Origin: Nitrospiraceae bacterium | GTDB lineage: Bacteria; Nitrospirota; Thermodesulfovibrionia; UBA6902 | Length of the DNA stretch: 64,000 bases | Direction: 5' to 3' | Assembly: GCA_003599275.1 (NCBI GenBank) | Contig: QZJG01000060.1 | Span: 24,854-88,853, forward strand | Shown here: positions 43,619 to 59,236 of the stretch, piece after piece | How the letters are laid out: each line of letters starts with the position of its first letter | Position numbering within the stretch: the first letter of the stretch is position 1 | Notes under the pieces: generated by a model | Database searches by the model: none | Told to the model about the DNA's origin: nothing | The model's input: the letters and a program-made list of their open reading frames with translations, nothing else | Translations under genes and position numbers: made by a program

Positions 43619-44077
43619 ATGAACAATGTACCAGGAGACCCGATTGAAGTCCTTCTTGTGGAGGACAACCCCGCAGACGTGCGCCTGATGAAGGAGTCTC
43701 TCAGGGACTCAAAGGTGCGCAATAACCTCCATGTGGTGAATGACGGAGAAGCGGCAATGTCCTTTCTGCGGCGTGAAGGAAAATACTCCGGCGTTCCCCA
43801 GCCGGACCTCATTATGTTGGACCTGAACCTCCCGAAAAAAGACGGCCGCGAGGTGCTTCAGGAGATCAAGACGGACCCTGCTCTGAAGCATATTCCGGTC
43901 GTTGTCGTCACCACGTCTTCGGCTGACGAAGACATCATCAAAAGCTATTGCCTCCATGCAAACTGCTTTGTTACAAAGCCGGTCGATCTCGACCAGTTCA
44001 TAAAGGTTGTGCAGGCGATCGAAGACTTCTGGTTTACAATAGTAAAACTGCCGAGGGAAGGGTGTGACAGAAAATAA
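43619..44077 (+). CDS. Single-domain response regulator (Rcp1-like)
   Basis: [34 protein letters not shown]. Start set at ATG 43619. Confidence 0.9.
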
Positions 44078-45623
44078 ACTCCATATCCTTCTGATCGAAG
44101 ACAATCCGGGAGACGCCCGATTGATAAAAGAGATGCTCTCCGAGTCAACCCTGCAATACTCAGTCGGGCATTCACAGACACTTTCAGACGGGCTTGAGAA
44201 ATTGAACAGCACCCATTTTGACGCGATCTTTCTCGATTTCAACCTCCCGGACTGCGAAGGCCTCGACTCTATTCCGAGGATCAAAAAAGCGGCCCCGAAG
44301 ACGCCCATCGTGATGCTCACAGGGCTTGACGATGAAAATACGGCTGTTTGCGCGCTGAGGACCGGCGCTCAGGACTACCTTGTCAAGGGGAAGATAGACA
44401 TTGACGCCCTTGCCCGGTCGCTGCGGTATTCAATAGAGCGCAAGCGGGCGGAGGGAGAGATCGAAACGTATAATAAGCGCCTTGAGATACTGGTCCATGA
44501 ACGTACAAAAGAGCTTGTGTCCGCAAACGAGGAGATACAGACTGCCAATGAGCTGCTGGAAAATATTTTTTCCAACGTACACGTCCTGCTTGCGTATATG
44601 GACACGGACTTCAACTTCATCAGGGTGAACAACAGGTATGCCGAGGCCGACGGTCATGTGCCGGAATTTTTCATCGGCAAAAACCATTTTGCCCTGTATC
44701 CGAATGAGGAGAATGAGGCTATTTTCCGGAAGGTGGCCGAGACCGGCGAAACTTTTTTTGTAAGGGCAAAACCCTTCAGGTATGCGGAGCATCCCGAGCG
44801 CGGCACGACCTTCCGGGACTGGAGCCTGAGAGCCGTTAAGGATGAATACGGTAAAGTCAGCGGACTGGTGCTCAGTCTTATCGACGTGACGCAGAACATA
44901 ATGCTTTACGAGGAACTTCTGCGGACCGACCACCTGGCGTCCATCGGAAAGCTTGCTGCGGGCGTGGCGCATGAGATCAACAACCCGATAAACGGGGTCA
45001 TAAATTATGCGCAGATATTGCTGAACAGGTGCGATACAGAGAGTAAAGAGCACGAGATTGCAGGCCGGATCATAAAGGAGAGCGACCGGATAGCGGGTAT
45101 TGTCAGCAATCTCCTTACCTTCGCAAGAGACAAAAAAGAGGCAAAGCGGCCCACTGATCTCAAGGCAGTGCTGTCAGACTCCCTCGCGCTTATGGAGACA
45201 CAATTAAGAAAGAACGGGGCGAGACTGAACGTGCATCTGCCCGATGATCTGCGGGAGGTCGTTGCCAATCACCAGCAGATACAGCAGGTATTTCTCAATG
45301 TCATCTCCAATGCGAGCTATGCCCTCAACCGGAAATATCCCTCGGCGCATGAGGACAAGGTGCTTGAGATAACGGGCATGAGGACGGAGCTTGAGGACAA
45401 GCCATACGTGCGGATGATATTCCATGACCACGGCTCAGGCATACCGGCCGGGATATTGGACAGGATAATGGCCCCGTTCTTTACGACAAAGAGCGGAGAT
45501 GATGGCACCGGCCTGGGGCTCAGCATCTGCCACGGCATAATAAACGACCACGAAGGAAAAATAAGGGTGGAGAGTGTCGAGGGTGCATTTACCAGGATCA
45601 TTATAGACCTTCCGGCCCTCTGA
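44064..45623 (+). CDS. REC-PAS histidine kinase
   Basis: REC ([16 protein letters not shown]), [25 protein letters not shown]. Confidence 0.9.
44545..45621 (+). repeat. Direct repeat copy 1 (~1.08 kb PAS-HisKA-HATPase module)
   Basis: Begins CCAATGAGCTGCTGGAAAATATTTTTTCC and ends GACCTTCCGGCCCTCT; collinear with 49331-50407. Confidence 0.9.
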
Positions 45624-45758: not shown

Positions 45759-47789
45759 ATGAAAATGGGCCTGATATTCTTTTTGCTGTTTTGCAATCTT
45801 TTTTTATCAATAACCAAAGCTGATGCAGGTGATACTCTGCCCGGCCCTCCTTCAGACCTCACTAAGCTCAGTCTTGAAGAGCTTATGGAGATGCGGGTAG
45901 AAACAGTATACGGCGCTTCGAAATATGAACAGAAGCTGACGGAGGCGCCGTCATCCGTAAGCATTGTTACCTCCGATGAGATAAAAAAATACGGCTACCG
46001 CAGCTTTGCGGAGGTCCTGCGGAGTATAAGGGGATTTCAGACCACAAATGACAGGAATTACAGTTACCTCAATGTAAGGGGGTTCGGGCTGCCCGGTGAT
46101 TACAACTCACGGATACTTCTTTTAATAGACGGACACCGTATAAACGACAACATATACAACGCGGCGGCGCTCGGCAGGGAGTTCCCTCTCGAGATCGACC
46201 TTATCGACAGGATAGAAGTTGTGCGCGGGCCGGGTTCTTCATTGTACGGAAGCAATGCCTTCTTTGCGGTAATCAATGTCATCACAAGGCGCGGCAGGGA
46301 CCTCAAGGGCGTTGAGGTGTCCGGTGAGGCCGGCAGCTTCAGCTCGTATAAAGGGCGCCTGAGTTACGGCAATACGTTCGACAACGGCCCGGAGATGCTG
46401 TTTTCCGGCTCCTATTATGACAGTAAAGGTAACAGACGTCTGTTCTACAGTGAATTTGACGACCCTTCGACAAACAACGGCATTGCAGAGGACCTGGATT
46501 ACGAGCGATACGGAAACCTCTTCGGAGAGATGACCTTTCAGGATTTCACCCTGCAGGGCAATTATAATTACAGGAAGAAAGGCGTGCCCACCGCGTCCTA
46601 CGAAACATTGTTCAACAACAGCAGGTTCTTTACGGTCGATGAGCAGTTCTGGGCGGACTTGAAGTATGCGCATACTTATCCGGAGCATTTAAATGTCCTG
46701 GCGCGTGTTAACTATAACTACTACAAATATTACGGCGACTATCCACTTGAAGGCGACCCGGCTGCAGGAGAGCCTGAGGTCCTTATAAACAAGGATTATA
46801 CAAGAGGCGAATGGTTTGACAGCGAGCTTCAATTCGTCAAATCCTTTGCGGACAGGAACAAGGTCATTCTTGGAGCATATCTCCAGTACGACCCGAAGCA
46901 GGTGCAGAGAAATTTCTATATCAATTCCGGCAGGGACGGGTTCAGGGACAAACGCAATTCACACAACTGGGCGCTTTACACCCAGGGTGAAATAGAAATG
47001 GCGCACAATCTGGTCCTGAACGCCGGGCTCCGCTATGATCACTACAAGACCTTCGGAGGTACAATCAATCCCCGCGCTGCGCTGATTTATTCACCTTTTG
47101 ACATGACGGCTTTCAAGCTGGTCTATGGACGCGCCTTCCGCGCCCCCAATGTCTATGAGCTTTATTACCATGACGGGTCCAATACGCAGAAGCCGGGGCT
47201 TGATCTGGAGCCGGAGGTCATCAATACTTATGAGGCGATTTACGAACAGTATCTTGGGGAAAATTATCGCGCAACAGTGACGGGGTTTTTCTACAGGATA
47301 GATGACCTGATAGCCCTGCAGACTGATTCTTCCGACGGCCTCCTTGTCTTCAGGAACGTCGATGAGGTCGAGGCAAAGGGCATGGAGTTCGAGCTTGGCG
47401 GCGAATGGAAGTGCGGGACTGAAGGCCGCGTCAGTTACACATTCCAGGAAACCGAAAACAGGCAGACAGGCGACGTCCTGCCCAATTCCGCAAAACACCT
47501 TGCAAAGCTCAATGTGGTCCTGCCACTGATAAAAGATAAATTGTTTCTGGGACTTGAAGAGCAGTATACGAGCAGGAGGAGAAATGTGTCCGGTGATTTT
47601 ACCGGCGGGTTTTTCATTACGAATCTGACTTTTTTCAGCAGGGACCTGACAGAGGGGCTGGAGCTCTCGGCGAGCGTGTACAACGTCTTTGATAAAAAGT
47701 ACGTCGACCCTGCTTCGGAAACGCACAGACAGGGGAACATAGAGCAGGACGGCGCGACCGGACGTGTGAAAGCGACATATAAGTTTTGA
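45759..47789 (+). CDS. TonB-dependent receptor (plug + barrel)
   Basis: Signal peptide, LSLEELM, ASKYEQ...APSSV, LLLIDG.RIND, RIEVVRGPGSSLYG.NAF, C-terminal YKF. Confidence 0.9.
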   Translation: MKMGLIFFLLFCNLFLSITKADAGDTLPGPPSDLTKLSLEELMEMRVETVYGASKYEQKLTEAPSSVSIVTSDEIKKYGYRSFAEVLRSIRGFQTTNDRNYSYLNVRGFGLPGDYNSRILLLIDGHRINDNIYNAAALGREFPLEIDLIDRIEVVRGPGSSLYGSNAFFAVINVITRRGRDLKGVEVSGEAGSFSSYKGRLSYGNTFDNGPEMLFSGSYYDSKGNRRLFYSEFDDPSTNNGIAEDLDYERYGNLFGEMTFQDFTLQGNYNYRKKGVPTASYETLFNNSRFFTVDEQFWADLKYAHTYPEHLNVLARVNYNYYKYYGDYPLEGDPAAGEPEVLINKDYTRGEWFDSELQFVKSFADRNKVILGAYLQYDPKQVQRNFYINSGRDGFRDKRNSHNWALYTQGEIEMAHNLVLNAGLRYDHYKTFGGTINPRAALIYSPFDMTAFKLVYGRAFRAPNVYELYYHDGSNTQKPGLDLEPEVINTYEAIYEQYLGENYRATVTGFFYRIDDLIALQTDSSDGLLVFRNVDEVEAKGMEFELGGEWKCGTEGRVSYTFQETENRQTGDVLPNSAKHLAKLNVVLPLIKDKLFLGLEEQYTSRRRNVSGDFTGGFFITNLTFFSRDLTEGLELSASVYNVFDKKYVDPASETHRQGNIEQDGATGRVKATYKF

Positions 47790-47817
47790 TAACCCGGCAA
47801 GCTAATATTCTGACTTT

Positions 47818-47893
47818 GTCATTCCGGCTCGTCCGGAATCTTTCTTTATTCTCAGTCAGATAAGCCGGTAGATTCCCGACAAGCGGGAATGAC
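47818..47893. repeat. Palindromic element GTCATTCCGGCTCGTCCGGAATC...GATTCCCGACAAGCGGGAATGAC
   Basis: Right arm identical to the 11.7 kb copy. Confidence 0.85.
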
Positions 47894-47936
47894 GGATTGC
47901 AGAATTTGTTTGCCGGTTTAATAGGCGGCCCATGAG

Positions 47937-48512
47937 ATGAAAAAAATAATTTTATTCATCCTGTTTTTCATATCACCATTTTACATTATCTTTGCGCCGG
48001 ACAATGCCCGGTCGGAAGAGCTGAAACCGGGTGAATATCAGGTCAAGGCCGCGTTCCTGTATAATTTCCTGAAGTTCATCGAATGGCCTGAAGGACCGGT
48101 CAAGACTGCCGATGCCGTTACTCTGTGCATACTCGGTGAGGACCCCTTTGGCCGGGACATCGATATAATCCGGGGGAAGGCCGTCAGGGACAGGGTATTG
48201 TCGGTCAGAAATATCGGGTCTGTCCAGGAGGCCGGGGAGTGCCGGATACTTTTTATAAGCCCTTCGGAGAGAAAAAATATAGCCCATATACTGGAAAAGG
48301 CCCGGGGCAGCGGCGTTGTTACAATCGGAGATACTGAAGGCTTTGCGCAGCAGGGAGTAATTATTAATTTTTTTCTGGAAAATGACAGGGTGCGTTTTGA
48401 GATAAACATCGAGGCCGCAAAAAAGGCGGACCTCCAGATAAGCTCGAAACTGCTCAAACTTGCAAGGATTGTCGAAAACACGGGACCGACGATAACAGGT
48501 ACTGGAAGATAA
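47937..48512 (+). CDS. YfiR/HmsC-family periplasmic protein (DUF4154)
   Basis: EYQVKAAFLYNFLKFIEWP, CRILFIS, INF.....RVRFEIN..AA..A.L.ISSKLLKLA. Confidence 0.9.
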   Translation: MKKIILFILFFISPFYIIFAPDNARSEELKPGEYQVKAAFLYNFLKFIEWPEGPVKTADAVTLCILGEDPFGRDIDIIRGKAVRDRVLSVRNIGSVQEAGECRILFISPSERKNIAHILEKARGSGVVTIGDTEGFAQQGVIINFFLENDRVRFEINIEAAKKADLQISSKLLKLARIVENTGPTITGTGR

Positions 48513-48516
48513 GTCC

Positions 48517-50427
48517 ATGAAAGCAGTCATACAAAATTCCGTCAGGCATAATCTGATACGCATTGTCGCAATTGCTGCAGGCGCTGCTTTGCTCATTCTG
48601 GTCCTTTCCGAAAGCATATACAACTTCCTGAGTTATCGTAATACAATGGCCGATAATCTCCTGACCCAGGCAAAGATCATGGGCTTAAACAGCACTGCCG
48701 CCATACTCTTTGAAGACCGGATGGACGCCGAAGAAACGCTTTCGGCGCTCGATGCAGTACCCGGTGTAGTCTATGCGGCGATCTACACAGCAAACGGTAA
48801 AACATTTGCGACATACCAAAAGAAGCGCTCTGAAGGCGTCCCTGTCCAACCGTCGCCTCAAGCGGAGGGCCACTTTTTTGAAGTCAATTATTTATCGGTG
48901 ATCCAGCCCATTATTGTCAAAAATGAGAGCATCGGCCGGATATATATACGCTCTATTCTGAAAGAGTTATATATGGATATGGCAATGCATGTGCTTATTA
49001 TAGTTGCAATCGGAATTGTGTCCCTGTCGATAGGAATACTGCTTCTGACAAGGCTGCATAAAATCATCACCGGTCCCCTCCTGCATCTGGTAAGTGTAAT
49101 GAAGACCGTTTCAGAAGGGAAAGATTATTCTCTCCGTGCCCGGGTGCAGGGACCTTCGGAGATGCGATACCTGTCTGAAGGATTCAACGAGATGCTTGGT
49201 CAAATCAGGGAAAGGGATTCAGAGCTTGAGTGGAACCGCCGCCATCTCGAAGAAACCGTCCGTATCCGGACACTGGAGCTGACGGAGACAAACGAAGAGC
49301 TGGGGAAAGAAGTTGCCCTGCGCCGGGAGACCAATGAGCTGCTGGAAAATATTTTTTCCAACGTACACGTCCTGCTCGCGTATATGGACACGGACTTCAA
49401 CTTAATCAGGGTGAACAACAGGTATGCCGAGGCCGACGGCCGTGGGCCGGAATTTTTCATCGGCAAAAACCATTTTGCCCTGTATCCGAATGAGGAGAAT
49501 GAGGCTATTTTCCGGAAGGTGGTCGAGACCGGCGAAACTTTTTTTGTAAGGGCAAAACCCTTCAGGTATGCGGAGCATCCCGAGCGCGGCACGACCTTCT
49601 GGGACTGGAGTCTGAGGCCTGTTAAGGATGAATATGGCAAAGTCACCGGACTGGTGCTCAGCCTTATCGACGTGACGCAGAATATAATGCTTTATGCGGA
49701 GCTTATGCGTGCCGACCACCTGGCGTCCATCGGAAAGCTTGCTGCGGGCGTGGCGCATGAGATCAACAACCCGATAAACGGCGTCATAAATTATGCGCAG
49801 ATATTGCTGAACAGGAGCGATACAGAGAGTAAGGAGCACGAGATCGCAGGCCGGATCATAAAGGAGAGCGACCGCATAGCGGGCATCGTCAGGAACCTCC
49901 TTTCCTTTGCCTGCGATAAGAAGGAGGAAAAGCGGCCCACGGACCTCAGGGCCGTATTGGCGGATTCACTTGCGCTTACGGAAACACAACTGATAAATGA
50001 CGGGACGAGACTGAATGTGCATATGCCCGATGATCTGCCGGAGGTCGTTGCCAATCACCAGCAGATACAGCAGGTATTTCTCAACGTCATCTCCAATGCG
50101 AGTTACGCCCTCAACCTGAAATACCCACCGGCGCATGAGGAAAAGGTGCTTGAGATAACGGGCACGAGGACGGAGCTTGAGGACAAACCATATGTGCGGA
50201 TGATATTTCATGACCACGGCACCGGCATTCCCGCCGGTATATTAGTCAGGATAATGGACCCCTTCTTTACGACCAAATACGGAGATAAAGGCTCAGGCCT
50301 GGGACTGAGCATATGCCACGGTATAATAAGCGACCACGGCGGAAGGATAAGGGTGGAGAGTACGGAAGGAGAGTATACGAAGGTCATTATCGACCTTCCG
50401 GCCCTCTTAGGGGAAGGAATATGCTGA
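48517..50427 (+). CDS. Membrane sensor histidine kinase (periplasmic sensor-HAMP-PAS-HisKA-HATPase)
   Basis: N-terminal AAILFED..AEETL.AL sensor typical of genes after yfiR; HAMP; C-terminal module duplicated from 44545-45621. Confidence 0.9.
   Translation: MKAVIQNSVRHNLIRIVAIAAGAALLILVLSESIYNFLSYRNTMADNLLTQAKIMGLNSTAAILFEDRMDAEETLSALDAVPGVVYAAIYTANGKTFATYQKKRSEGVPVQPSPQAEGHFFEVNYLSVIQPIIVKNESIGRIYIRSILKELYMDMAMHVLIIVAIGIVSLSIGILLLTRLHKIITGPLLHLVSVMKTVSEGKDYSLRARVQGPSEMRYLSEGFNEMLGQIRERDSELEWNRRHLEETVRIRTLELTETNEELGKEVALRRETNELLENIFSNVHVLLAYMDTDFNLIRVNNRYAEADGRGPEFFIGKNHFALYPNEENEAIFRKVVETGETFFVRAKPFRYAEHPERGTTFWDWSLRPVKDEYGKVTGLVLSLIDVTQNIMLYAELMRADHLASIGKLAAGVAHEINNPINGVINYAQILLNRSDTESKEHEIAGRIIKESDRIAGIVRNLLSFACDKKEEKRPTDLRAVLADSLALTETQLINDGTRLNVHMPDDLPEVVANHQQIQQVFLNVISNASYALNLKYPPAHEEKVLEITGTRTELEDKPYVRMIFHDHGTGIPAGILVRIMDPFFTTKYGDKGSGLGLSICHGIISDHGGRIRVESTEGEYTKVIIDLPALLGEGIC
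49331..50407 (+). repeat. Direct repeat copy 2 (~1.08 kb PAS-HisKA-HATPase module)
   Basis: Same length and ends as copy 1; high identity by eye (not computed). Confidence 0.9.
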
Positions 50428-51961
50428 ACGTAGTCCCCTGCCCCGGGCCGCTGTCTGCAAGCAGATAACCTTTGTGCTCCTTGATGATCCCAAATACGAT
50501 GGATAATCCGAGCCCTGTCCCTAATCCGGCCTTTTTTGTAGTAAAGAACGGGTCGAACATCTTGTCTTTTGTGTCCTGGTCCATGCCGGTCCCGGTGTCG
50601 GTGATGCTGATTTCCGCGTAATCGGCGGCAGCCGGTCTTTCATTACTCTCAACTCTTAACTCATGACTCCGGATTTTTCTTGTCCGTATGGTCAAGGTCC
50701 CGCCATCCGGCATTGCGTCCCTTGCATTTGTTGCAAGGTTCATCAGGACCTGCTCTATTTGTCCGGGGTCTGCCGTCACAATTAAATCCTCTCCCGCGGT
50801 CTCGACTGTAAATTCCATGTCTTCTTTCAGGAGCCTCCGCAATATCTCTTCCATATTGCGGATGAGGTCGTTGAGGTTTACGGCCTCGGGAAAGCTCATC
50901 CGTTTTCTTGTGTATGTGAGAAGGCCCTTTGTGAGGGCTTCTCCCTTGTCCGCAACAGACAATATCTGTCGCACGCAGTGTCCCGCAAATTCCTCGTCAT
51001 TATTTTTTTTCTGCAGGAGCTCTGCATAACCTATTATCGCGCCAAGTATGTTGTTGAAGTCGTGGGCAATGCCTCCCGCGAAGATGCCCATCGCCTCCAC
51101 TTTCCGGGTGTGCCTGAGCTGTTCTTCAATTATCTGTTTTTCCTCCTCCCTCTTTTTCAGGGATTCGGCCATGCCGTTAAATGCCTGCGCGAGCCTGCCT
51201 ATTTCATCGTCTCTTCCAGCGTATATCTTTTTGACCGAAGACCCGGCCCCCAGCGCCTTTACCTCCCCGGTCAGCCTTTTCAGCGGCCTTGTGGCCCCTT
51301 TTACCATGAAATAAGTGATGAGCCACGCGGGTATTATGAAGAACCCGAGCACTGTGAGGCTTTTGAACAATAGCTCTCTCAGATTCCTGTTCAGTATTTC
51401 CGTGGTGAGTACGGTCCGCACAAACCCTGTTACAATTTCTTTCTGAGGCGTTGGTCCCCTGTTTAAAAGCAGGTCCTCTTCGCCGGCATTATTCACGCGG
51501 GAAGTCACGGGAGCCCAGAATTCTATCCAGCCCTCTGTTTCTGAATAAAATGCCGGGCCGGACGCGCTGAGCATGTCCATCGTCTCCTTACTCATGTGCC
51601 GCAGGCCCACGGGACGCTTTTTACTGGCCGAGATCGCGGGGCTTTCTTCCGTCTTCAATTCCCTGCCGTCAACTGTAAATACCTGGACCAGTATCACTTC
51701 GTCATTTTGCAGGATCCCTCCGACGGGATATTTGAGCAGATCTTCGTTTTCCGCAAAGACGCCGAGCCTCGAATTATAGGCAAGCAGCCCCGACAGTTGT
51801 TCTCCTTCATCTATAAGGTGCTGTCTTAACAGTTGCCCCTGATTGTAGACCAGGAGTGCGGTGAAAGAGATATGGATGACTACGATGAGGCAGGTGAACA
51901 GGAGAAATATCTTTGCGCCGAAGCTTTCGCGGATGTATTTTATGAGTTTTAAATATGGCAT
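50387..51961 (-). CDS. Membrane sensor histidine kinase (HAMP-HisKA-HATPase)
   Basis: Two TMs, HAMP, AGGIAHDFNNIL, DTGTGM, FDPFFTTK..G.GTGLGL. Confidence 0.9.
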   Translation of the reverse strand: MPYLKLIKYIRESFGAKIFLLFTCLIVVIHISFTALLVYNQGQLLRQHLIDEGEQLSGLLAYNSRLGVFAENEDLLKYPVGGILQNDEVILVQVFTVDGRELKTEESPAISASKKRPVGLRHMSKETMDMLSASGPAFYSETEGWIEFWAPVTSRVNNAGEEDLLLNRGPTPQKEIVTGFVRTVLTTEILNRNLRELLFKSLTVLGFFIIPAWLITYFMVKGATRPLKRLTGEVKALGAGSSVKKIYAGRDDEIGRLAQAFNGMAESLKKREEEKQIIEEQLRHTRKVEAMGIFAGGIAHDFNNILGAIIGYAELLQKKNNDEEFAGHCVRQILSVADKGEALTKGLLTYTRKRMSFPEAVNLNDLIRNMEEILRRLLKEDMEFTVETAGEDLIVTADPGQIEQVLMNLATNARDAMPDGGTLTIRTRKIRSHELRVESNERPAAADYAEISITDTGTGMDQDTKDKMFDPFFTTKKAGLGTGLGLSIVFGIIKEHKGYLLADSGPGQGTTFSIFLPLRGPEGR

Positions 51962-51964
51962 GTT

Positions 51965-52963
51965 CTATTCCTCTCTGATTGTCTTTGTCCTCTCCGGGAC
52001 CTCTTTACCCATATTGACGCCCAGTTTTTTTGCCGTCTTCCCGTTGACCGTGACAATGGCGTCTTCTGTGTAAGTCTCTTCGATCTCTTCTGCCTCAACG
52101 CCGGACAGGACCTTCCTTGTCACGTCCCATGCATGTCTTCCCATGTCGCGGGCATCCGCCTCAAGCGATATCAGGGCCCCCATTGCGAGATATTTTTCTG
52201 AAAACGTTATCACCGGCATTCCCTGTTCAAGCGAGTAAAGCAACAGGAATTCGGTTGTCTCCGGGGTAACTACTGTAACGTCCGGCAGCATCCACAGGGC
52301 GTTTATTTTCCCGTTCATGCTGTTCAAAATTGCGGGGACGTCCTTTGAGCTCCGGACTTCCCGCGCAATCAATTCCAGGCCTGACCGGGCCGAGGCCTGC
52401 TGCGCCCTTTTTACAAAGCCGCCCGTATTGCGCGGATCAAAAAGCAGGCCGATGCTCTTTACGCCGGGCAGCGCCCTCCGTATGACGGCCAACTGTCTTT
52501 CAGGCGACGGCTGCATGCTTACTCCCGCGATATTGTCATGGCCCCGTGTCAATGTTCCGGGGTTCAGGACCATGGCATAGACGATGGGGATGTTTTTAAT
52601 GCTTCTGATTGTATTGAGCGCATCGAAGCCTATTGCAAGAATGACCCGGGGTTTGGCTTCAAGGACTTCTTTTGCGACGTCCCGGTCTTTCATCTCAGAG
52701 AGAATAAACCGCTCCACCTCGCAGTTGCAGGAGGCCGAATAGCCTTCGAGCGCGTCGTTATAGGGTTTAATATTGATGCTCTGGACAGAGACGATATTGA
52801 AGGCGGACGCGGATGACGGGAAGCTCAAAAAAAGCAGCAGAAAAGCCGCATGGAAATTCTTCCACAGCCTTTTATGTTTGCAGAATTGTAACAGATAAGA
52901 ATTATTCATGACCTGATTTAATAATAGACAAAAGGCGATACTTTCTTTAATATATTTCACCAT
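51965..52963 (-). CDS. ABC_sub_bind-type periplasmic substrate-binding protein (true start probably downstream of 52963)
   Basis: YNDALEG, LAIGFDAL, PIVYAMVLNP, IGLLFDP, ALWMLPD.TV, GALISL, VNGKTAKKLG. Followed by a kinase rather than a permease. Confidence 0.8.
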   Translation of the reverse strand: MVKYIKESIAFCLLLNQVMNNSYLLQFCKHKRLWKNFHAAFLLLFLSFPSSASAFNIVSVQSINIKPYNDALEGYSASCNCEVERFILSEMKDRDVAKEVLEAKPRVILAIGFDALNTIRSIKNIPIVYAMVLNPGTLTRGHDNIAGVSMQPSPERQLAVIRRALPGVKSIGLLFDPRNTGGFVKRAQQASARSGLELIAREVRSSKDVPAILNSMNGKINALWMLPDVTVVTPETTEFLLLYSLEQGMPVITFSEKYLAMGALISLEADARDMGRHAWDVTRKVLSGVEAEEIEETYTEDAIVTVNGKTAKKLGVNMGKEVPERTKTIREE

Positions 52964-53080
52964 GGATTGAGTTACTCTCCAAAATGAAAAAGAGCTTACT
53001 CATACTGTAAAAGACAGACTCAATAAAAAGATAGCTGTCAAAATTGACAGGTACCCCGCTGAAAGGAGAGAGAAGCAGAT

Positions 53081-55066
53081 ATGGATGTGAAAAGGACCTG
53101 CCGCGCTGATTCAGTCTGTTCCCGTCTTCTGAAATTCTTTTTTTTGTTATCTGTGATAACTCTGCCCGCCGTTGTCTTTGCCCAGTCTGAAGAGGAGAGC
53201 AGGATGCTTCAGATGTACTTCAAAGAAGATGAACTTGTCGAAGCTCCCACAAGGACCCCGAAGCCGCTCTCGAAGGTCGCCGAAAATATCAGTATAATCA
53301 CCTCGGAGGAGATAGAGGCGATGAACGCGCATACCGTCACTGAGATACTGGAAAGGGTGACAGGCTTGTTTGTCGAATTCTTCGGGCATGACTTTGGAAG
53401 CGGTTCAAATCTTTATATCGAGGGGTCCAATGAAACTCACGTCCTTGTGCTGGTGGACGGGACCCCGTGGAATTTCCTCAGCGGAGGGAATGCTGCGGTC
53501 AATTCGGTCCCTGTAAGGACAATCAAGCGCATCGAGGTCATAAAAGGCCCTGCTTCATCGGCATGGGGATCATCATTGGGAGGCGTGATAAATATAGTGA
53601 CAAAGGACACCGGGGACGATACGGTCCCGTCAGGCTCGCTGGGCGCATCCATAGGGGAAAGAGATACACATGATTACACTGCTGAAGTCACGGGCAGAGC
53701 GGGAATTGCCGGATACTATTTATACGCAGGCAGGCAGGGCTCGAACGGCTTGAGAGACGAGAGGTTTTTTGAAAACGACAGTTTTTACGGAAAGATCGAT
53801 GTCCCCTTTTCCTCAGATATAAAGCTCCTGCTGACTTCCGGATATAGCGGGCCTCGTTTAAATACCGGTGATCTCATAAGCTCTGATTTGACGTCAATCG
53901 ATATCACCCGCGCATTTTTTACGACAGCGTCTGTTGCTGCCGGTATCACCGATGAGCTCAGGTTCGAGGCGTCCGTTTACAGGTTTGAACAGAAATTTGT
54001 GCAGGACAATGTCGTCCTCGGAACAGGGCTATTGGACCCTGCCGAATCTGCCGGAGACAGGTTTTCAAAAATTATATACGATGAAAAGACCGATGGTGGA
54101 AGCGCAAAGCTGGTCTGGACCGATGCCGTTCACACTGCCGTCATCGGCGCAGATGTCAGCCACGGCAAGCTGGACCAGACCATCAGGGCCGGGACTGTCC
54201 TGCAGTCCATGGGTGTGCCGGAGGTGGACAGAACGCATCCCGGCATCAGTAAATGGGCGGTCTTCTTTAATGACACAATGTCATTCGGAGATTTTTCAGT
54301 TACCCCCGGCATCAGGTACGATGAAAACAATGTCAGCGGAGAGTTTACGAGCCCGAGCCTCGGGGCCACATATAAAGCCGGCAAACGCACGGTACTCAGG
54401 GCCTCTGTTGCAAAGGGCTTTACCTCGCCGCCCCTTTCTTTTACTTCGGGAGGCGGGGTGTTTCTTGACCCTAATCCAAATTTAAAACCGGAGAAGGTCT
54501 GGTCTTATCAGGCCGGGGCCGAGTCACAGGTGACGGATTTTTTACGCGCAAGGGTCACAGTCTTTCATCACGACATGAAGAATGCGCAGGTGAAAGTATT
54601 ATACGCTGCGGGCGCCCCTACATATAACGACCTGTACTTTAATCTGGGTGAGATTAAACGGAACGGCGTGGAACTCGATGCGGAGACAGCTCAATTTTAT
54701 AACGTGTCCATGAAGGCTGGGTTTGCGTATGTCCGCAAAGAATCTTATCTTGAAACTGACACCTCCGAAGAAAGTACGATATATAACTATATGTATAATC
54801 TTTCTGCAAGATACGATGACAGGAAAACCTTTTCAGCGCAGCTTGACGGACACTATGTTTGGTGGGACTATAGCTCCTCATACATGGCAAAATATGATAC
54901 GTTTATCTGGGACCTAAACCTCAGGAAGAAAATTTATTCCGGAGGCAGTATGAATACGGACATATTCATGACAGCCCATAATCTCTTCAACGGCTCCCAT
55001 TATACACTCGGTGAGAGGCAGAACCCGCGCAGATGGATCGAGGCGGGATTGAGTTTGAAGTTTTAA
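53081..55066 (+). CDS. TonB-dependent receptor (plug + barrel)
   Basis: Signal peptide, ENISIIT.EEIEAMNAHT, VLVLVDG, RIEVIKGPASSAWGSSLGGVINI, C-terminal LKF. Confidence 0.9.
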   Translation: MDVKRTCRADSVCSRLLKFFFLLSVITLPAVVFAQSEEESRMLQMYFKEDELVEAPTRTPKPLSKVAENISIITSEEIEAMNAHTVTEILERVTGLFVEFFGHDFGSGSNLYIEGSNETHVLVLVDGTPWNFLSGGNAAVNSVPVRTIKRIEVIKGPASSAWGSSLGGVINIVTKDTGDDTVPSGSLGASIGERDTHDYTAEVTGRAGIAGYYLYAGRQGSNGLRDERFFENDSFYGKIDVPFSSDIKLLLTSGYSGPRLNTGDLISSDLTSIDITRAFFTTASVAAGITDELRFEASVYRFEQKFVQDNVVLGTGLLDPAESAGDRFSKIIYDEKTDGGSAKLVWTDAVHTAVIGADVSHGKLDQTIRAGTVLQSMGVPEVDRTHPGISKWAVFFNDTMSFGDFSVTPGIRYDENNVSGEFTSPSLGATYKAGKRTVLRASVAKGFTSPPLSFTSGGGVFLDPNPNLKPEKVWSYQAGAESQVTDFLRARVTVFHHDMKNAQVKVLYAAGAPTYNDLYFNLGEIKRNGVELDAETAQFYNVSMKAGFAYVRKESYLETDTSEESTIYNYMYNLSARYDDRKTFSAQLDGHYVWWDYSSSYMAKYDTFIWDLNLRKKIYSGGSMNTDIFMTAHNLFNGSHYTLGERQNPRRWIEAGLSLKF

Positions 55067-55078
55067 CCGTCTGTTTTC

Positions 55079-55681
55079 TTGTTAAGGTCAAATATGACTC
55101 CGACGAGCAGAAAAAATCTCCGGACCTTTGCTGCTGCCAATTCGATCTGGGCAATCGTTGGAGGTATTATGGGGCCCTTTTACATCCTGCAGGTAAACAA
55201 CCTTAGCGATGGGATGGAAAAGATGGGCTTTGCATTCAGCATAATGATACTCTTCAGGTCTGCGTCCTCATATGTCACGGGCCGGGTATCGGACAGGTGC
55301 GGACGAAAGGTTTTTCTGTTCCTTGCGGCTTATATCCAGGCGATTGTCATTTTCCTGTATACCGTTATTACAACAACCTCTCACCTGTTTATCCTCCAGG
55401 CGCTGATGGGTGTGACCGATGGGTCTCTTACTACCATTAAAACCTGTCTTCTGGGCGATATTACCAGGAAAGAAAAACGGGGGACCGTTGTCGGCGGGTT
55501 TGATGCAGTTGTCAGTTTGTCGTCCGCAATAGGGTTGGCACTGGGGGGGTATATTGTGAAATTTTACGGATTGAAATCGGTCTTTTACATAACATCGGTA
55601 GTCATTGTGCTCTCAACGGCAGTATTGTTTTTTATTAAAGAAGACGCTGAGGCAGCAGTTCCCCCTGAAAAAACTTCTTGA
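55079..55681 (+). CDS. Half-size (about 6 TM) MFS transporter
   Basis: MFS motif A-like GRVSDRCGRK, six hydrophobic segments, 200 aa. Confidence 0.7.
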   Translation: MLRSNMTPTSRKNLRTFAAANSIWAIVGGIMGPFYILQVNNLSDGMEKMGFAFSIMILFRSASSYVTGRVSDRCGRKVFLFLAAYIQAIVIFLYTVITTTSHLFILQALMGVTDGSLTTIKTCLLGDITRKEKRGTVVGGFDAVVSLSSAIGLALGGYIVKFYGLKSVFYITSVVIVLSTAVLFFIKEDAEAAVPPEKTS

Positions 55682-55706
55682 CATCCAATTACTACCTTAT
55701 TAATAT
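55678..55706 (+). promoter_or_regulatory. Putative sigma70 promoter of the precursor peptide (TTGACA-N17-TAATAT)
   Basis: Perfect -35 overlapping the MFS stop codon, 17-nt spacer. Confidence 0.55.
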
Positions 55707-55756
55707 AAGTAACCTGCCTTAGCAGGGGATCGGTATTTCCATAAAAGGAGGGAGCC

Positions 55757-55858
55757 ATGGAAAGAGAAGAGATCATAATTCTGGATGAAGGTATTGACTT
55801 GCGGGAGGTAGGGCCTGACGGCCCGTGTTGTTCTACTACAACCGCACCTATAAGATAG
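55757..55858 (+). CDS. RiPP precursor peptide, geopeptide-like (MEREEIIILDEGIDLREVGPDGPCCSTTTAPIR)
   Basis: Not in the ORF track. Strong RBS AGGAGGGAG; acidic leader I-I-L-D-E-G-I; CC core; directly upstream of a radical SAM/SPASM gene. Confidence 0.85.
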   Translation: MEREEIIILDEGIDLREVGPDGPCCSTTTAPIR

Positions 55859-55862
55859 TACG

Positions 55863-55894
55863 AAAGTGGGAGGGAGGAAGCTCTCTCCCACTTT
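55863..55894 (+). terminator. 14-bp hairpin (AAAGTGGGAGGGAG-GAAG-CTCTCTCCCACTTT) between precursor and maturase
   Basis: Read directly; one G-U pair, short U tract. Confidence 0.65.
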
Positions 55895-55915
55895 TAGCAG
55901 GTTTCTCCAAAAAAG

Positions 55916-57229
55916 ATGAAACTCTCCCGATACCTTAAAATCTACCCCTTCGACGAAAGACCCGGCTATCTCCTGCTTTACTCCACAAAAAAGTCATCAA
56001 AGATACTTCTCAGGGAGGAGACTTACGATTCAATAATCAACGGCACGCTGTCTCCTGAAAACGAGGCAACACTGTCGAGACTCGGGATGATCGTTTCAGA
56101 CCTTGAACTCGAAAGAAGGGAAGTCCTCGGCCTGATCGATGAGATCAATGCAAAGAATGCCAGGCTGAACCTGAGCGTTATCATGAACCTCGACTGCAAC
56201 TTCAACTGCGTGTACTGTTACGAAGGCGGCATGAAGGGCAAGTTCTATATGACCGATGAGACGGCGGGGCTCCTTCTTGATTTTGTTAAGGACCGGTTCA
56301 CTCCCGGCAAGAAAACCATACATATGGATTTTTACGGCGGAGAGCCGTTGCTGAGCGCAAACCTCATCAAATCCATCTCGATGGAGATGAAGTCTTTTGC
56401 AGAAAGCAGAGGCGCAAGATACACTTTCACTCTTGTTACCAACGGCTCTCTTTTAAAAAGGCGCATCGCGGAAGAGCTGACCTCGCTGGGACTTAAGGGA
56501 GTAAAGATGACCCTTGACGGCCCGCCTGAAATTCACAACTCCTGCCGTCCCTTTAAATCAGGCGCGGGCAGCTTTGACGCCATTGTCGAAAACATTAAAG
56601 AGACACATGATCTCCTGAAAATCGGCATAGGCGGCAATTACCGCAAAGATAACTTTGAAAAATTTCCGCTGCTGTTCGATTATCTCGAAAGGGAAGGGCT
56701 CACTCCCGGCAGGATACACGAATTGAAATTCGAGCCTGTAATGAACAGGCCCGTGGATGAAAACTCGCCTGATTATATGGACGGCCTCATGTCCGTAAAT
56801 GAGCCGTGGGTGATAAGCGCAGGCGCGTTTTTGAGGGGAGAAGTTTTGCGAAGGGGCTACGGTACTCCGAAGATCAACCCCTCGCCCTGTCAGGTTGAGA
56901 TTAATGACTCTTATGTAGTGAATTTCGACGGCGTCATCTATAAGTGTCCTGTCTTTATCGGAAAGAAGGGTTTTGAGACAGGAGACCTCCGGAACGGCGT
57001 TACGGATTACAGCGATTCGCACAGGCCCGGCATTTACAAAAATGATGAATGCGCTGAATGCGGGTATCTGCCGCTCTGCTTCGGCGGCTGCCGTTATATG
57101 TCGTATGTCAGAAACGGGAATGTAGAGAGCGTTGACTGCAAGAGACCTTACTTCGACGCCGTCCTTGAGACGATGATAAAACAGGACATAAAGTTTCTCT
57201 CCTCCCGGTCAACCAAATCCAGCGATTAA
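55916..57229 (+). CDS. Radical SAM/SPASM peptide maturase (geopeptide-maturase-like)
   Basis: MKLSRYLKIYP...GYLLLYST N-terminal extension (possible RRE), CNFNCVYC, FYGGEPLL, SPASM cysteines PC...YKC...CAECGYLPLCFGGC...DC. Confidence 0.9.
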   Translation: MKLSRYLKIYPFDERPGYLLLYSTKKSSKILLREETYDSIINGTLSPENEATLSRLGMIVSDLELERREVLGLIDEINAKNARLNLSVIMNLDCNFNCVYCYEGGMKGKFYMTDETAGLLLDFVKDRFTPGKKTIHMDFYGGEPLLSANLIKSISMEMKSFAESRGARYTFTLVTNGSLLKRRIAEELTSLGLKGVKMTLDGPPEIHNSCRPFKSGAGSFDAIVENIKETHDLLKIGIGGNYRKDNFEKFPLLFDYLEREGLTPGRIHELKFEPVMNRPVDENSPDYMDGLMSVNEPWVISAGAFLRGEVLRRGYGTPKINPSPCQVEINDSYVVNFDGVIYKCPVFIGKKGFETGDLRNGVTDYSDSHRPGIYKNDECAECGYLPLCFGGCRYMSYVRNGNVESVDCKRPYFDAVLETMIKQDIKFLSSRSTKSSD

Positions 57230-57244
57230 TTGCACCCCTCCATT

Positions 57245-57319
57245 GTCATTGCGAGGTCGATACGACCGTGGCAATCTACATATAAAAAGGCAGGATTGCT
57301 TCGCTTCACCCGCAATGAC
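57245..57319. repeat. Palindromic element GTCATTGCGAG...GGCAATCT...GATTGCTTCGC...GCAATGAC
   Basis: Same family as 32336-32478. Confidence 0.8.
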
Positions 57320-57347
57320 AATCTTTATCTCTAAATTTGAGATCAGC

Positions 57348-57375
57348 TTGATTTAATACGACAGTTACTTATAAT
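57348..57375 (+). promoter_or_regulatory. Putative sigma70 promoter (TTGATT-N16-TATAAT)
   Basis: Perfect -10; 26 nt upstream of ATG 57402. Confidence 0.5.
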
Positions 57376-57401
57376 AAACGTATTGATCTTTCTTGCTGCA
57401 T

Positions 57402-57977
57402 ATGGAAAAAATCCTCATCATTGACGACGACAGTGAGATGCAGTCAGTCCTTTCGGACATCCTGAAATCGGAAGGATACGAACCTCTCGTTTCAGGCGAC
57501 GGAAGGAAGGCCCTCAGGTATATCACGGACCTTTCCCCTGCCCTTGTTCTGCTGGATATAAGACTTCCCGGCATGGACGGTATGAAGGTGTTAGAGAAAA
57601 TCAGGCAGACGGACAAGAGACTTATCGTAATCATGCTCACCGGATACGGGGACATCAAGGACGCGGTCCAGGCGATAAAGATGGGCGCGTTCGACTATAT
57701 CACAAAGCCCTTCAGGAACCAGGAGATAGTATCGACCGTAAGAGACGCCCTTCTGGCCCGGCTCAGTTGTGACGCCCACGCGGTTACGCCACGGGAGAAA
57801 GAGGTGCTTGCATGGCTCAAGGAGGGGAAAAGCTCACGGGACATTTCTTTGATCCTTGGTATCAGCGACAGGACAGTAAATTTTCATATCAATAATGTCA
57901 TGCATAAACTTAACGCGGTAAGCAGGATGCATGCTGTAGCCATAGCGGTCGAAAAGGCAATAATAGATACGAGATAA
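57402..57977 (+). CDS. Response regulator, REC + LuxR-type HTH
   Basis: IIDDD, LLDIRLPGMDG, GAFDYITKPF; TPREKEVLAWLKEGKSS.DIS.ILGISDRTVNFH. Confidence 0.9.
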   Translation: MEKILIIDDDSEMQSVLSDILKSEGYEPLVSGDGRKALRYITDLSPALVLLDIRLPGMDGMKVLEKIRQTDKRLIVIMLTGYGDIKDAVQAIKMGAFDYITKPFRNQEIVSTVRDALLARLSCDAHAVTPREKEVLAWLKEGKSSRDISLILGISDRTVNFHINNVMHKLNAVSRMHAVAIAVEKAIIDTR

Positions 57978-57985
57978 AACAGGGG

Positions 57986-59236
57986 TCAAACAAGCAGGAC
58001 CTGAAGCACCTGATCGATCCTCTTCAAATTTCCCAGGACCTTTTCGCAAGCATCGCGCCCGACTTTGTGCGCCCTCGTCAGGGCAACAAATCCTGCAAGT
58101 CTGCTTTCGATTTCATCAACGGCCCCTTTTACATCGAGATCGTCGTTCATTTTCCGCTCAAATGCATTTGTAAGCTTATCGGGCGTCGCGGTTGTATCTG
58201 CTCCGCCTTTGGTCTTCCGGCAATTGCGGATCTCCTGCGTCATACTTCTGATCGAATCGATCCGTCCGGCGGCTTCCCTCAACCTGTCTCCGGTAAGGTC
58301 CAGTTTTTTCCTGTAGTGCTCCCGGACAAGGAAAAAGCGGACATGTTCAGCGCTAAACCCCTGCTTCAAAAGCTCCTGGAGATAGACTATATTGCCCTTG
58401 CTTTTGGACATCTTCGCGCCGTTGACGATCACATGCTCGCCGTGGAGCCAGTAGTGGGCAAACTCCCTTCCAAGGAGCGAGTCCATAATCGCCAGGGTAT
58501 AGTCATGGTGCCGGTAAAGATTGTCCACGCCCCCGCAGCAGATATCGATTTCGCAGCCGAGGTGTTTGGTGATCATGGCCGCGTCCTGGATGTTCCATGC
58601 TGGCCTGCCCCGACCAATGGCCGTGTCCCATGAAAAGCCTTCATTTCCCCTGCTCTTATCGTCGTGCCACAGAATGAAATCTCCCAGGTTCCAGCGCATG
58701 CCGGTGTAGGTGTCTCTCCGAAAGCGTCTTTTCTCTTTGGGCCAGCGGCCCATATCGAGGCCGAAGAGCCTGCCGAAGCCCTTGAATTTCAGGGGATCAA
58801 AGAATACATCGCCTTTATGCCTGTAAGCGTAACCCTTCTCTATCAGGCGTTCGATGAGATGGACCGCCTGGTCTACGCTTGTGGAAGATCTGGCGATATG
58901 CGGCGGAAGTTTTATTTTTAATGCTGCGGCATCAGTCATAAATTGTTCGGCATTGGGGGTGATAAGTTTTTCACGGGTCAGATTCTTTTCCCGTGCTTTG
59001 ACGATGGCCTTGTCCTCGACGTCGGTAAAATTGATAAGGCGCTGGACGTTGTATCCCAGATATTCCAGGTAACGCTGCAGGACGTCTTCGTAAAGGAAAG
59101 AACGGTAGTTTCCCACGTGGGGTCTTGCATAGATGGAAGGGCCGCATGTAAACATCTTTACCTCTTTGTCCCTGCGCGGCTTAAAGAGCTCTTTTTTTCC
59201 GGTAAGAGTGTTATAAAGATAAAGACTGTTTCTCAA
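57986..59236 (-). CDS. Cysteinyl-tRNA synthetase-like protein with altered active site and no anticodon-binding domain
   Basis: YNTLT..KE.F, CGPSIY, PHVGN, TDVEDK, DFILW and KMSKSKGN are present. GRPGWHIECSAM is replaced by GRPAWNIQDAAM and PHHENE by RHHDYT. The protein ends after the DALR helices (416 aa). Confidence 0.8.
   Translation of the reverse strand: MRNSLYLYNTLTGKKELFKPRRDKEVKMFTCGPSIYARPHVGNYRSFLYEDVLQRYLEYLGYNVQRLINFTDVEDKAIVKAREKNLTREKLITPNAEQFMTDAAALKIKLPPHIARSSTSVDQAVHLIERLIEKGYAYRHKGDVFFDPLKFKGFGRLFGLDMGRWPKEKRRFRRDTYTGMRWNLGDFILWHDDKSRGNEGFSWDTAIGRGRPAWNIQDAAMITKHLGCEIDICCGGVDNLYRHHDYTLAIMDSLLGREFAHYWLHGEHVIVNGAKMSKSKGNIVYLQELLKQGFSAEHVRFFLVREHYRKKLDLTGDRLREAAGRIDSIRSMTQEIRNCRKTKGGADTTATPDKLTNAFERKMNDDLDVKGAVDEIESRLAGFVALTRAHKVGRDACEKVLGNLKRIDQVLQVLLV

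Follow-up and report, generated by a model that had tools for sequence, protein, structure and literature searches.

We analysed a 64,000-nt stretch of DNA, hereafter the window, from a Nitrospiraceae bacterium (GCA_003599275.1, contig QZJG01000060.1, positions 24,854 to 88,853, forward strand) and examined a cassette at 50387-57977. This cassette brings together the genes for a short Cys-Cys peptide and its predicted radical S-adenosylmethionine (SAM)/SPASM maturase with those for a TonB-dependent receptor (TBDR2), a periplasmic binding protein, a sensor histidine kinase (HK2) and a LuxR-type response regulator. The grouping is far beyond chance, because the assembly encodes only two receptors with a Plug domain, TBDR1 and TBDR2, both inside the window, and because receptor and maturase are neighbours in 36 of 37 informative related loci. 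As judged from their recurrence across genomes, the six core parts very probably form one inherited unit. With moderate confidence, we further propose that the cell releases the cross-linked peptide and takes it back up through the receptor, and that, once in the periplasm, the peptide is bound and its presence reported via the kinase to the LuxR-type regulator.

Gene identities were taken from an open reading frame (ORF) listing combined with Pfam and NCBIfam scans; the assembly that holds the window comprises 3.05 Mb in 74 contigs and is 88.6% complete. A reading of the DNA made from its letters alone (the sequence-only reading) had named seven genes here, the six above and a half-size transporter of the major facilitator superfamily (MFS), and all seven were recovered at the positions below, listed together with the associated sequence signals.

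50387-51961, minus strand: sensor histidine kinase HK2, with HAMP, HisKA and HATPase_c domains (Pfam)
51965-52963, minus strand: transporter-less periplasmic binding protein, PF04392 ABC_sub_bind, 101 bits
53035-53050, no strand: candidate operator, the perfect 16-bp palindrome CTGTCAAAATTGACAG, whose end lies 30 nt ahead of the start codon of the receptor gene
53081-55066, plus strand: TonB-dependent receptor TBDR2, Plug 78 bits and TonB_dep_Rec_b-barrel 116 bits (Pfam)
55079-55681, plus strand: half-size MFS protein of 200 aa, matching MFS_1 positions 11-183 of 347
55678-55706, plus strand: sigma-70-like promoter TTGACA-N17-TAATAT, a consensus match only, at 10/12 consensus positions
55757-55858, plus strand: geopeptide-type precursor MEREEIIILDEGIDLREVGPDGPCCSTTTAPIR, a 33-aa ORF with leader motif IIILDEG, Cys-Cys and an 8-residue tail
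55862-55895, plus strand: GC-rich 15-bp hairpin followed by UUUU, between precursor and maturase, -26.3 kcal/mol, z = -4.45
55916-57229, plus strand: geopeptide radical SAM/SPASM maturase, TIGR04280, 567.3 bits vs a cut-off of 400
57393-57977, plus strand: response regulator with REC and a GerE/LuxR-type helix-turn-helix (Pfam), FixJ-like, with NCBIfam FixJ below cut-off

The conservation of the cassette was followed in 40 loci, comprising the ~19-kb neighbourhoods of 35 maturases and five loci from named metagenome-assembled genomes, onto which the window proteins were placed by blastp and tblastn. Loci that have sequence upstream of the maturase were considered informative; there were 37 of these, from ~30 Nitrospirota genera (below, L numbers denote loci, G numbers genomes and C numbers contigs). 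With L072 as the one exception, every informative locus has a TBDR2 homologue 109-1045 bp upstream of its maturase, and a PF04392 binding protein and a kinase stand beside the maturase in ~30 loci. Two layouts were observed. In type A, the binding protein and kinase are divergent from the receptor (the window, L010, L012, L043, L045, L058, L064, L074 and L076); in type B, found in ~22 loci, they lie directly downstream of the maturase and are followed by a regulator. Independent gene calls with precomputed Pfam labels revealed the same order in further contigs, including genes of 42-43 aa before the maturase. The Geobacteraceae-type records L097/L098 and L099 share the type A layout, and the cassette therefore spans two phyla. 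The sequence-only reading would have been undermined by non-conserved neighbours around homologous maturases; instead, the receptor, binding protein, kinase and usually a regulator travel with the maturase, in Nitrospirota as in Geobacteraceae. No further neighbour family recurred in the 40 loci. An apparent absence of the binding protein from four loci proved to be an ORF-picking artefact, produced by opposite-strand shadow ORFs, and was corrected by tblastn.

Of 401 genomes sampled evenly from the phylum, 44 encode a maturase above the TIGR04280 cut-off, some of them two or three, and public data hold more than 2,000 homologues. Among nine family relatives, the maturase is missing from both same-genus genomes and from five of the seven same-family genomes; the cassette is therefore patchy and accessory. 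An orthologue of the binding protein was likewise detected in only two of the nine, the same two that encode the maturase. When the whole phylum was searched with a profile built from 26 cassette binding proteins, hits scoring at least 330 bits adjoined a complete or partial TIGR04280 match wherever coordinates were checked. The exceptions are G197, which has the binding-protein/kinase pair alone, G081 and G107:C49, both at contig ends, and G346:C143. Below ~320 bits, the hits grade continuously into related PF04392 proteins from genomes that lack a maturase.

The precursor gene ends 57 nt before the maturase, and homologous CC peptides occupy the same position in ~36 of the 40 loci, also in Geobacteraceae, whose type is represented by MEKNDIILVLDAGNDGPTIGPEVFCCALTFTFFRGI and MKQKEEIIVLDAGSNEPGIIGPDAFCCALTYTFFRG (from L097/L098 and L099). 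In 29 curated and aligned precursors, the CC pair is invariant and is preceded, at a distance of 10-11 residues, by a strand-like leader motif, [IV]x[IV][LI][DK]xG, which reads IIILDEG in the window; many type B loci have IVVLKKG instead. The 7-12-residue tails are hypervariable, with CC-x-G-A-hydrophobic-hydrophobic-P-x-[R/L/W] as a common pattern. Leader motif, spacing, CC pair and tail length are common to the window precursor, 28 other cassette peptides and the two Geobacteraceae peptides. A single genome may carry up to three cassettes with different peptides, and paralogous cassettes with different tails were found within each of G242, G308, G322 and G370. Long Lys/Ala-rich, histone H1-like leaders (e.g. 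AAKKKPAAKK repeats) replace the short acidic/basic leader in L049, L054, L066, L068, L069 and L073, and L057 (G398) encodes a single-Cys peptide, ...MAHCFNWPAGPLK, instead of one with a Cys-Cys pair. A GC-rich hairpin comparable to that of the window follows the precursor stop in every locus tested (26/26, median z = -4.85). A hairpin between precursor and enzyme genes is the usual way to obtain more precursor than enzyme transcript, and the one described here is probably an attenuating terminator.

The TIGR04280 match of the maturase spans positions 1-427 of 428 and exceeds the curated cut-off, so the geopeptide assignment made earlier for this enzyme was correct. The protein also has a Pfam Radical_SAM match; the cysteines of its CX3CX2C motif (C94, C98 and C101) and of its SPASM domain (C325, C344, C379, C382, C388, C392 and C408) are invariant in 39 homologues, and an N-terminal stretch of ~85 aa is the presumed leader-binding region. 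The nearest named families, all far below their cut-offs, are CefB, TIGR04463, Clo7bot, PapB, nif11-type and SCIFF, and the closest solved structure is CteB (5WGG, E = 4e-19). Since these families are all maturases of Cys-containing peptides and CteB forms thioethers, the reaction most likely for this enzyme is predicted to be the formation of thioether cross-links between the Cys-Cys pair and the tail. It shares with CteB (SCIFF) and PapB (ranthipeptides) the CX3CX2C motif, a full 7-Cys SPASM domain, an N-terminal extension and Cys-containing substrates, whereas the geopeptide substrate differs from theirs in that its cysteines form a single vicinal pair and no acceptor residue is conserved.

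According to Pfam, TBDR2 consists of a Plug and a 22-strand-type barrel, with no N-terminal signalling (STN) extension. The cassette contains no sigma/anti-sigma gene, and genes for two TonB_C proteins lie at other places in the genome. It had been proposed that all the parts needed to make, export, re-import, sense and respond to a modified peptide are assembled here. The genes are indeed present, but the proposed exporter, the half-MFS, was found in only ~8 of ~45 loci and is not part of the core. In five loci (the window, L043, L063, L064 and L072) the half-MFS has 185-200 aa and is 48-56% identical, and in the last four of these it adjoins the maturase; homologues of 146-186 aa occur in L078-L080. 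Naturally half-length MFS proteins are unusual, and the conservation of the short length indicates that this one is not a pseudogene. With ~six transmembrane (TM) helices and an MFS motif-A-like D-R-x-G-R-K, it would need to dimerise to form a 12-TM transporter, and we regard it as an accessory part and a possible exporter.

The binding protein carries a signal peptide, ...FLSFPSSASA, and its translation probably begins downstream of the first ATG. Structures were predicted as single-chain AlphaFold2 (AF2) models and their folds matched by Foldseek. The binding-protein model (predicted local distance difference test, pLDDT, 89.7) has a two-lobed type I periplasmic-binding-protein fold, with 3LKV, 3LFT (L-Trp bound) and CD0873 as the best PDB matches at ~20% identity; with such a fold, the protein could recognise a small cross-linked peptide by one of its ends. 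The earlier description of this protein as lacking a transporter was borne out: no ABC permease or ATPase gene is present between positions 44 and 64 kb of the window, and no permease-like family recurs among the unlabelled neighbours in the 40 loci. The second PF04392 gene of the genome, on C64, is followed by a kinase, with no receptor or transporter.

In HK2, two TM helices surround a periplasmic domain of ~160 aa, a topology conserved in 19 cassette kinases. The AF2 model of this sensor domain (pLDDT 80.5) shows a single PDC/Cache-like fold, for which Foldseek retrieved the sensor domains of WalK and CitA as best matches. Residues 1-521 of HK2 align to residues 1-526 of orthologues that are 664-682 aa long. 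The missing C-terminal receiver of ~140 aa, together with an overlap of 41 nt (50387-50427) between the 3' end of HK2 and the convergent gene of a second kinase, HK1, suggests that HK2 was truncated when the neighbouring module arrived. The best NCBIfam match of the regulator is FixJ (124 bits vs a cut-off of 255). In L010, L011, L012, L013, L044 and L058, the gene directly downstream of the maturase encodes an orthologue of it, with 56-66% identity, and a 194-aa REC + GerE gene holds the regulator position in L081/L082. HisKA kinases of the FixL type pair with FixJ-like REC + GerE regulators, and the domains of such a pair were all detected by Pfam: HisKA and HATPase_c in the kinase, REC and GerE in the regulator.

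HK1 belongs to a second receptor-plus-kinase module directly upstream of the cassette (45759-50427). This module comprises TBDR1 (45759-47789; TOL_0244-like, below cut-off), a YfiR-like periplasmic protein (47937-48512; NF053591, 147 bits vs a cut-off of 125) and HK1 itself, a CHASE8 kinase (48517-50427; NF053592, 191.8 bits vs a cut-off of 194). TBDR1 and TBDR2 each stand beside a periplasmic protein and a kinase; that both TonB receptors of the genome lie in sensor modules suggests that TonB-dependent import can serve sensing, not nutrition. A REC-PAS-kinase at 44064-45623 is 83% identical to HK1 over 397 residues (PAS, HisKA and HATPase), and this likeness points to a recent duplication or a domain swap of the transmitter half. 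Beyond the cassette, at 57986-59236 on the minus strand and convergent to the regulator, lies a 416-aa paralogue resembling cysteinyl-tRNA synthetase (CysRS), whose identity is only 33-34% both to the CysRS genes of the nine relatives and to another CysRS-like gene of this genome, on C71. We rejected it as a cassette part: it has no close orthologue in the nine relatives, including the two with a cassette, and the only match among the loci, a weak one of 33%, was in L077, several genes away.

The circuit that we propose would operate as follows. The precursor would be transcribed from its own promoter, and the hairpin would let only part of the transcripts reach the maturase. The leader strand would dock on the N-terminal region of the maturase, which would cross-link the Cys-Cys region to the tail, most likely through thioethers as in CteB and PapB. 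The product may exit through the half-MFS where one is present and otherwise by an unlinked route, and an unlinked protease may cut the leader. TBDR2 would then pump the product back into the periplasm; TonB-dependent re-import is expected because the product would be too large for porins, and a peptide of ~1 kDa or more cannot passively cross the outer membrane. Within the periplasm, the transporter-less PF04392 protein would capture the product and modulate the PDC-type domain of HK2. Finally, HK2 would phosphorylate the FixJ/LuxR-type regulator, which would feed back on the cassette, possibly via the palindrome before the receptor, and act on other genes. The peptide could serve to signal between cells, to carry metal or to act as an autoinduced antimicrobial. 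Of these we favour signalling, in view of the hypervariable tails and of the several orthogonal cassettes that one genome can carry; variable tails and paralogous cassettes are typical of pheromone systems.

Several observations, concerning the peptide, its presumed sensor, the palindrome and the distribution of the sensor genes, weigh against this circuit. When the proposed geopeptide pair was checked against the family models, the maturase was confirmed (567 bits vs 400 for TIGR04280) but the precursor was not: its TIGR04229 score of 11.2 bits (E = 0.26) is below the cut-off of 30. The core of the window peptide, CCSTTTAPIR, has a tail, STTTAPIR, that retains the proline and is devoid of the usual G-A after CC, which accounts for the low score. 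Judged by context and motif, and not by its score against the hidden Markov model, the window peptide is a divergent geopeptide. The solved structures closest to the binding protein are of PF04392 relatives whose ligands are the free amino acids L-Trp, L-Tyr or L-Phe and not peptides (PMC10443332). By analogy, the aromatic amino-acid ligands of these relatives weigh somewhat against a large peptide ligand. A PDC domain like that of HK2 can also bind small ligands directly, as CitA does. No dedicated protease, and no exporter aside from the half-MFS, recurred among the neighbours in the 40 loci. The sequence-only reading had already remarked on the lack of a protease, and in fact the cassette encodes no peptidase and none is conserved in the 40 related loci.

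The palindrome given above is the sole perfect match in the window, and CTGTCA-N4-TGACAG has four sites in 715 kb (one in the window, one in L012 and two in L048) vs an estimated ~0.04 by chance. One of the L048 sites is located 322 nt upstream of the receptor, the other just past the regulator. The palindrome is missing from most cassettes, and the shorter form TGTCA-N4-TGACA occurs at 13 sites genome-wide vs ~2.9 expected, some of them inside genes; given this enrichment, the motif may belong to another regulator. As it was found in three cassettes only and is enriched genome-wide, we did not accept it as the regulator's operator and keep it as a candidate. Extended palindromes, (A)CCTGTCA-N4-TGACAG(GT), are intergenic at C16:53449 and C29:26495 in the genome of the window itself, and at L012:15412, L048:6560 and L048:13519; they could represent a regulon or an unrelated repeated element. 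The one on C16 lies ~335 nt upstream of the gene for an 888-aa secreted trypsin-like protease with TPR repeats (motifs identified by eye). A search of the cassette for a Fur-type box gave best matches of 13-14 of 19 positions and no support for iron regulation.

Some loci carry the sensor genes without the genes for production. L092-L094 have a triad of receptor, binding protein and kinase from the same subfamilies in the type A layout, but neither a maturase nor a peptide gene follows the receptor, which in L092 shares 55% identity with that of a cassette. L085 (G197) has a lone binding-protein/kinase pair, whose binding protein shares 62% identity with the one in a congeneric cassette. A self-made peptide is therefore not required for the sensor to exist. 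Other loci are in decay: L089 (G226) has a broken maturase and keeps its receptor, binding protein, kinase and regulator intact, in L090 (G242:C2) the receptor and maturase are fragmented, and in L091 (G200:C6) every cassette part is fragmented. Such loci indicate that production genes can be lost while sensing genes are kept. The maturase-less triads can be read either as listeners to the peptide of others or as a sensor that does not need the peptide.

If the sensor needs no peptide, the peptide may be a regulated output, an explanation that we consider unlikely. The receptor, binding protein and kinase would then sense an external ligand, such as an aromatic amino-acid-like compound unrelated to the peptide, the regulator would turn on peptide production, and the modified peptide would be an effector, such as a redox peptide, an antimicrobial or a cofactor-like molecule inside the cell. 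The triads of L092-L094 and the pair of L085 speak for this explanation, and it also agrees with the kinase-only pairing of the second PF04392 protein in the genome, with the known PF04392 ligands being single aromatic amino acids and with the lack of an exporter conserved in the cassette. The TBDR1/YfiR-like/CHASE8-kinase module adds to this by presenting receptor-plus-kinase sensing as a general theme here. However, in ~22 loci the peptide and maturase lie between the receptor and the sensor genes as one co-oriented unit, their adjacency is nearly invariant, and close relatives without the maturase are also without the binding protein. Moreover, the type B peptide gene is embedded in the sensor operon, not downstream of a regulator, and the maturase-less triads are equally readable as listeners to the peptide of neighbours.

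Less likely again is a metallophore resembling methanobactin, which would be secreted, loaded with metal via sulfur groups derived from the Cys-Cys pair and taken up through the TonB-dependent receptor, with the sensor tuning its production. The gene set does resemble methanobactin operons as generally known, the Cys-Cys pair is the sole invariant feature of the core, and receptor-dependent uptake is normal for metal chelates. Yet the cassette has neither an inner-membrane importer nor a Fur-type box (14 of 19 positions at best), its maturase is not of the MbnB/MbnC type, and thioether formation by the enzyme, if it occurs, would consume the thiols. Conservation does not extend to other metal-binding residues, the tails are hypervariable, and up to three cassettes with different peptides per genome would be unusual for a metal carrier. 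Finally, a chance association of neighbours, or a small ORF that is not a gene, is extremely improbable: although the peptide does not reach the TIGR04229 cut-off, and although the promoter and palindrome were recognised by consensus or pattern alone, the comparative data effectively refute it, with adjacency in 36 of 37 loci from ~30 genera and in a second phylum, a conserved peptide family and hairpin, and only two receptors in the genome.

We therefore return to the circuit of release, re-import and sensing as the explanation that we prefer. Peptide signalling is well known in Gram-positive bacteria and rare in bacteria with an outer membrane, and this circuit, if it exists, would be a concrete, testable solution to peptide signalling across that membrane. 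It would also provide the first functional handle on a radical SAM/SPASM family known so far by a database name alone. The host groups, anaerobic Nitrospirota and relatives of Geobacter, are important in sulfur, iron and subsurface cycles, and, as far as we know, their cell-cell communication has been little studied. More tentatively, and with doubts that outweigh our confidence, geopeptides in general may be autoinducers of double-membraned anaerobes, read by a TonB-gated form of quorum sensing through a lineage-specific tail, a dedicated receptor, an orphan binding protein and a PDC-type kinase. Were this the case, the maturase-less triads would be eavesdroppers, multiple cassettes would be orthogonal channels, and the route of reception would be one not described before.

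In the literature searched, we found no publications on the geopeptide/TIGR04280 system or on its linkage to a receptor, binding protein, kinase or regulator, and no description of a cassette that, as its gene content suggests, combines methanobactin-, LuxP/LuxQ- and lantibiotic-like elements. NCBIfam classes the geopeptide family as a 'hypothetical equivalog', a definition drawn from comparative genomics alone. The cassette resembles the geopeptide system (TIGR04229 + TIGR04280) in its maturase above cut-off, its short Cys-Cys peptide directly upstream and the layout found in Geobacteraceae, and differs from it in a peptide with CCSTTTAPIR in place of CC-x-G-A that falls below the TIGR04229 cut-off. 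Methanobactin operons (MbnA, MbnBC, MbnT, MbnE and regulators) similarly combine a precursor and maturase with a TonB-dependent transporter and a periplasmic binding protein, and by analogy the logic may be alike, in that a product is secreted and then re-imported. They differ in their MbnB (DUF692)/MbnC maturase, in sigma/anti-sigma regulation in place of a two-component system and in another binding-protein family; no MbnB (DUF692)/MbnC domain was detected among the cassette proteins, whose sole modifying enzyme is the radical SAM/SPASM protein.

On the sensing side, LuxP/LuxQ (for autoinducer 2, AI-2), TorT/TorS and ChvE/VirA likewise place a transporter-less periplasmic binding protein beside a membrane kinase with a periplasmic sensor. 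In contrast to these pairs, the cassette adds a TonB-dependent receptor and the gene pair of a ribosomal peptide modified after translation, and its binding protein belongs to PF04392. The autoinducing lantibiotic systems nisin/NisK-NisR and subtilin/SpaK-SpaR provide the parallel of a modified ribosomal peptide that induces its own operon via a kinase and a regulator, but their hosts are monoderm and need no import across an outer membrane. FecA-type signalling, in turn, also involves a TonB receptor, but it relies on an N-terminal signalling domain and anti-sigma factors, whereas TBDR2 consists of Plug and barrel only.

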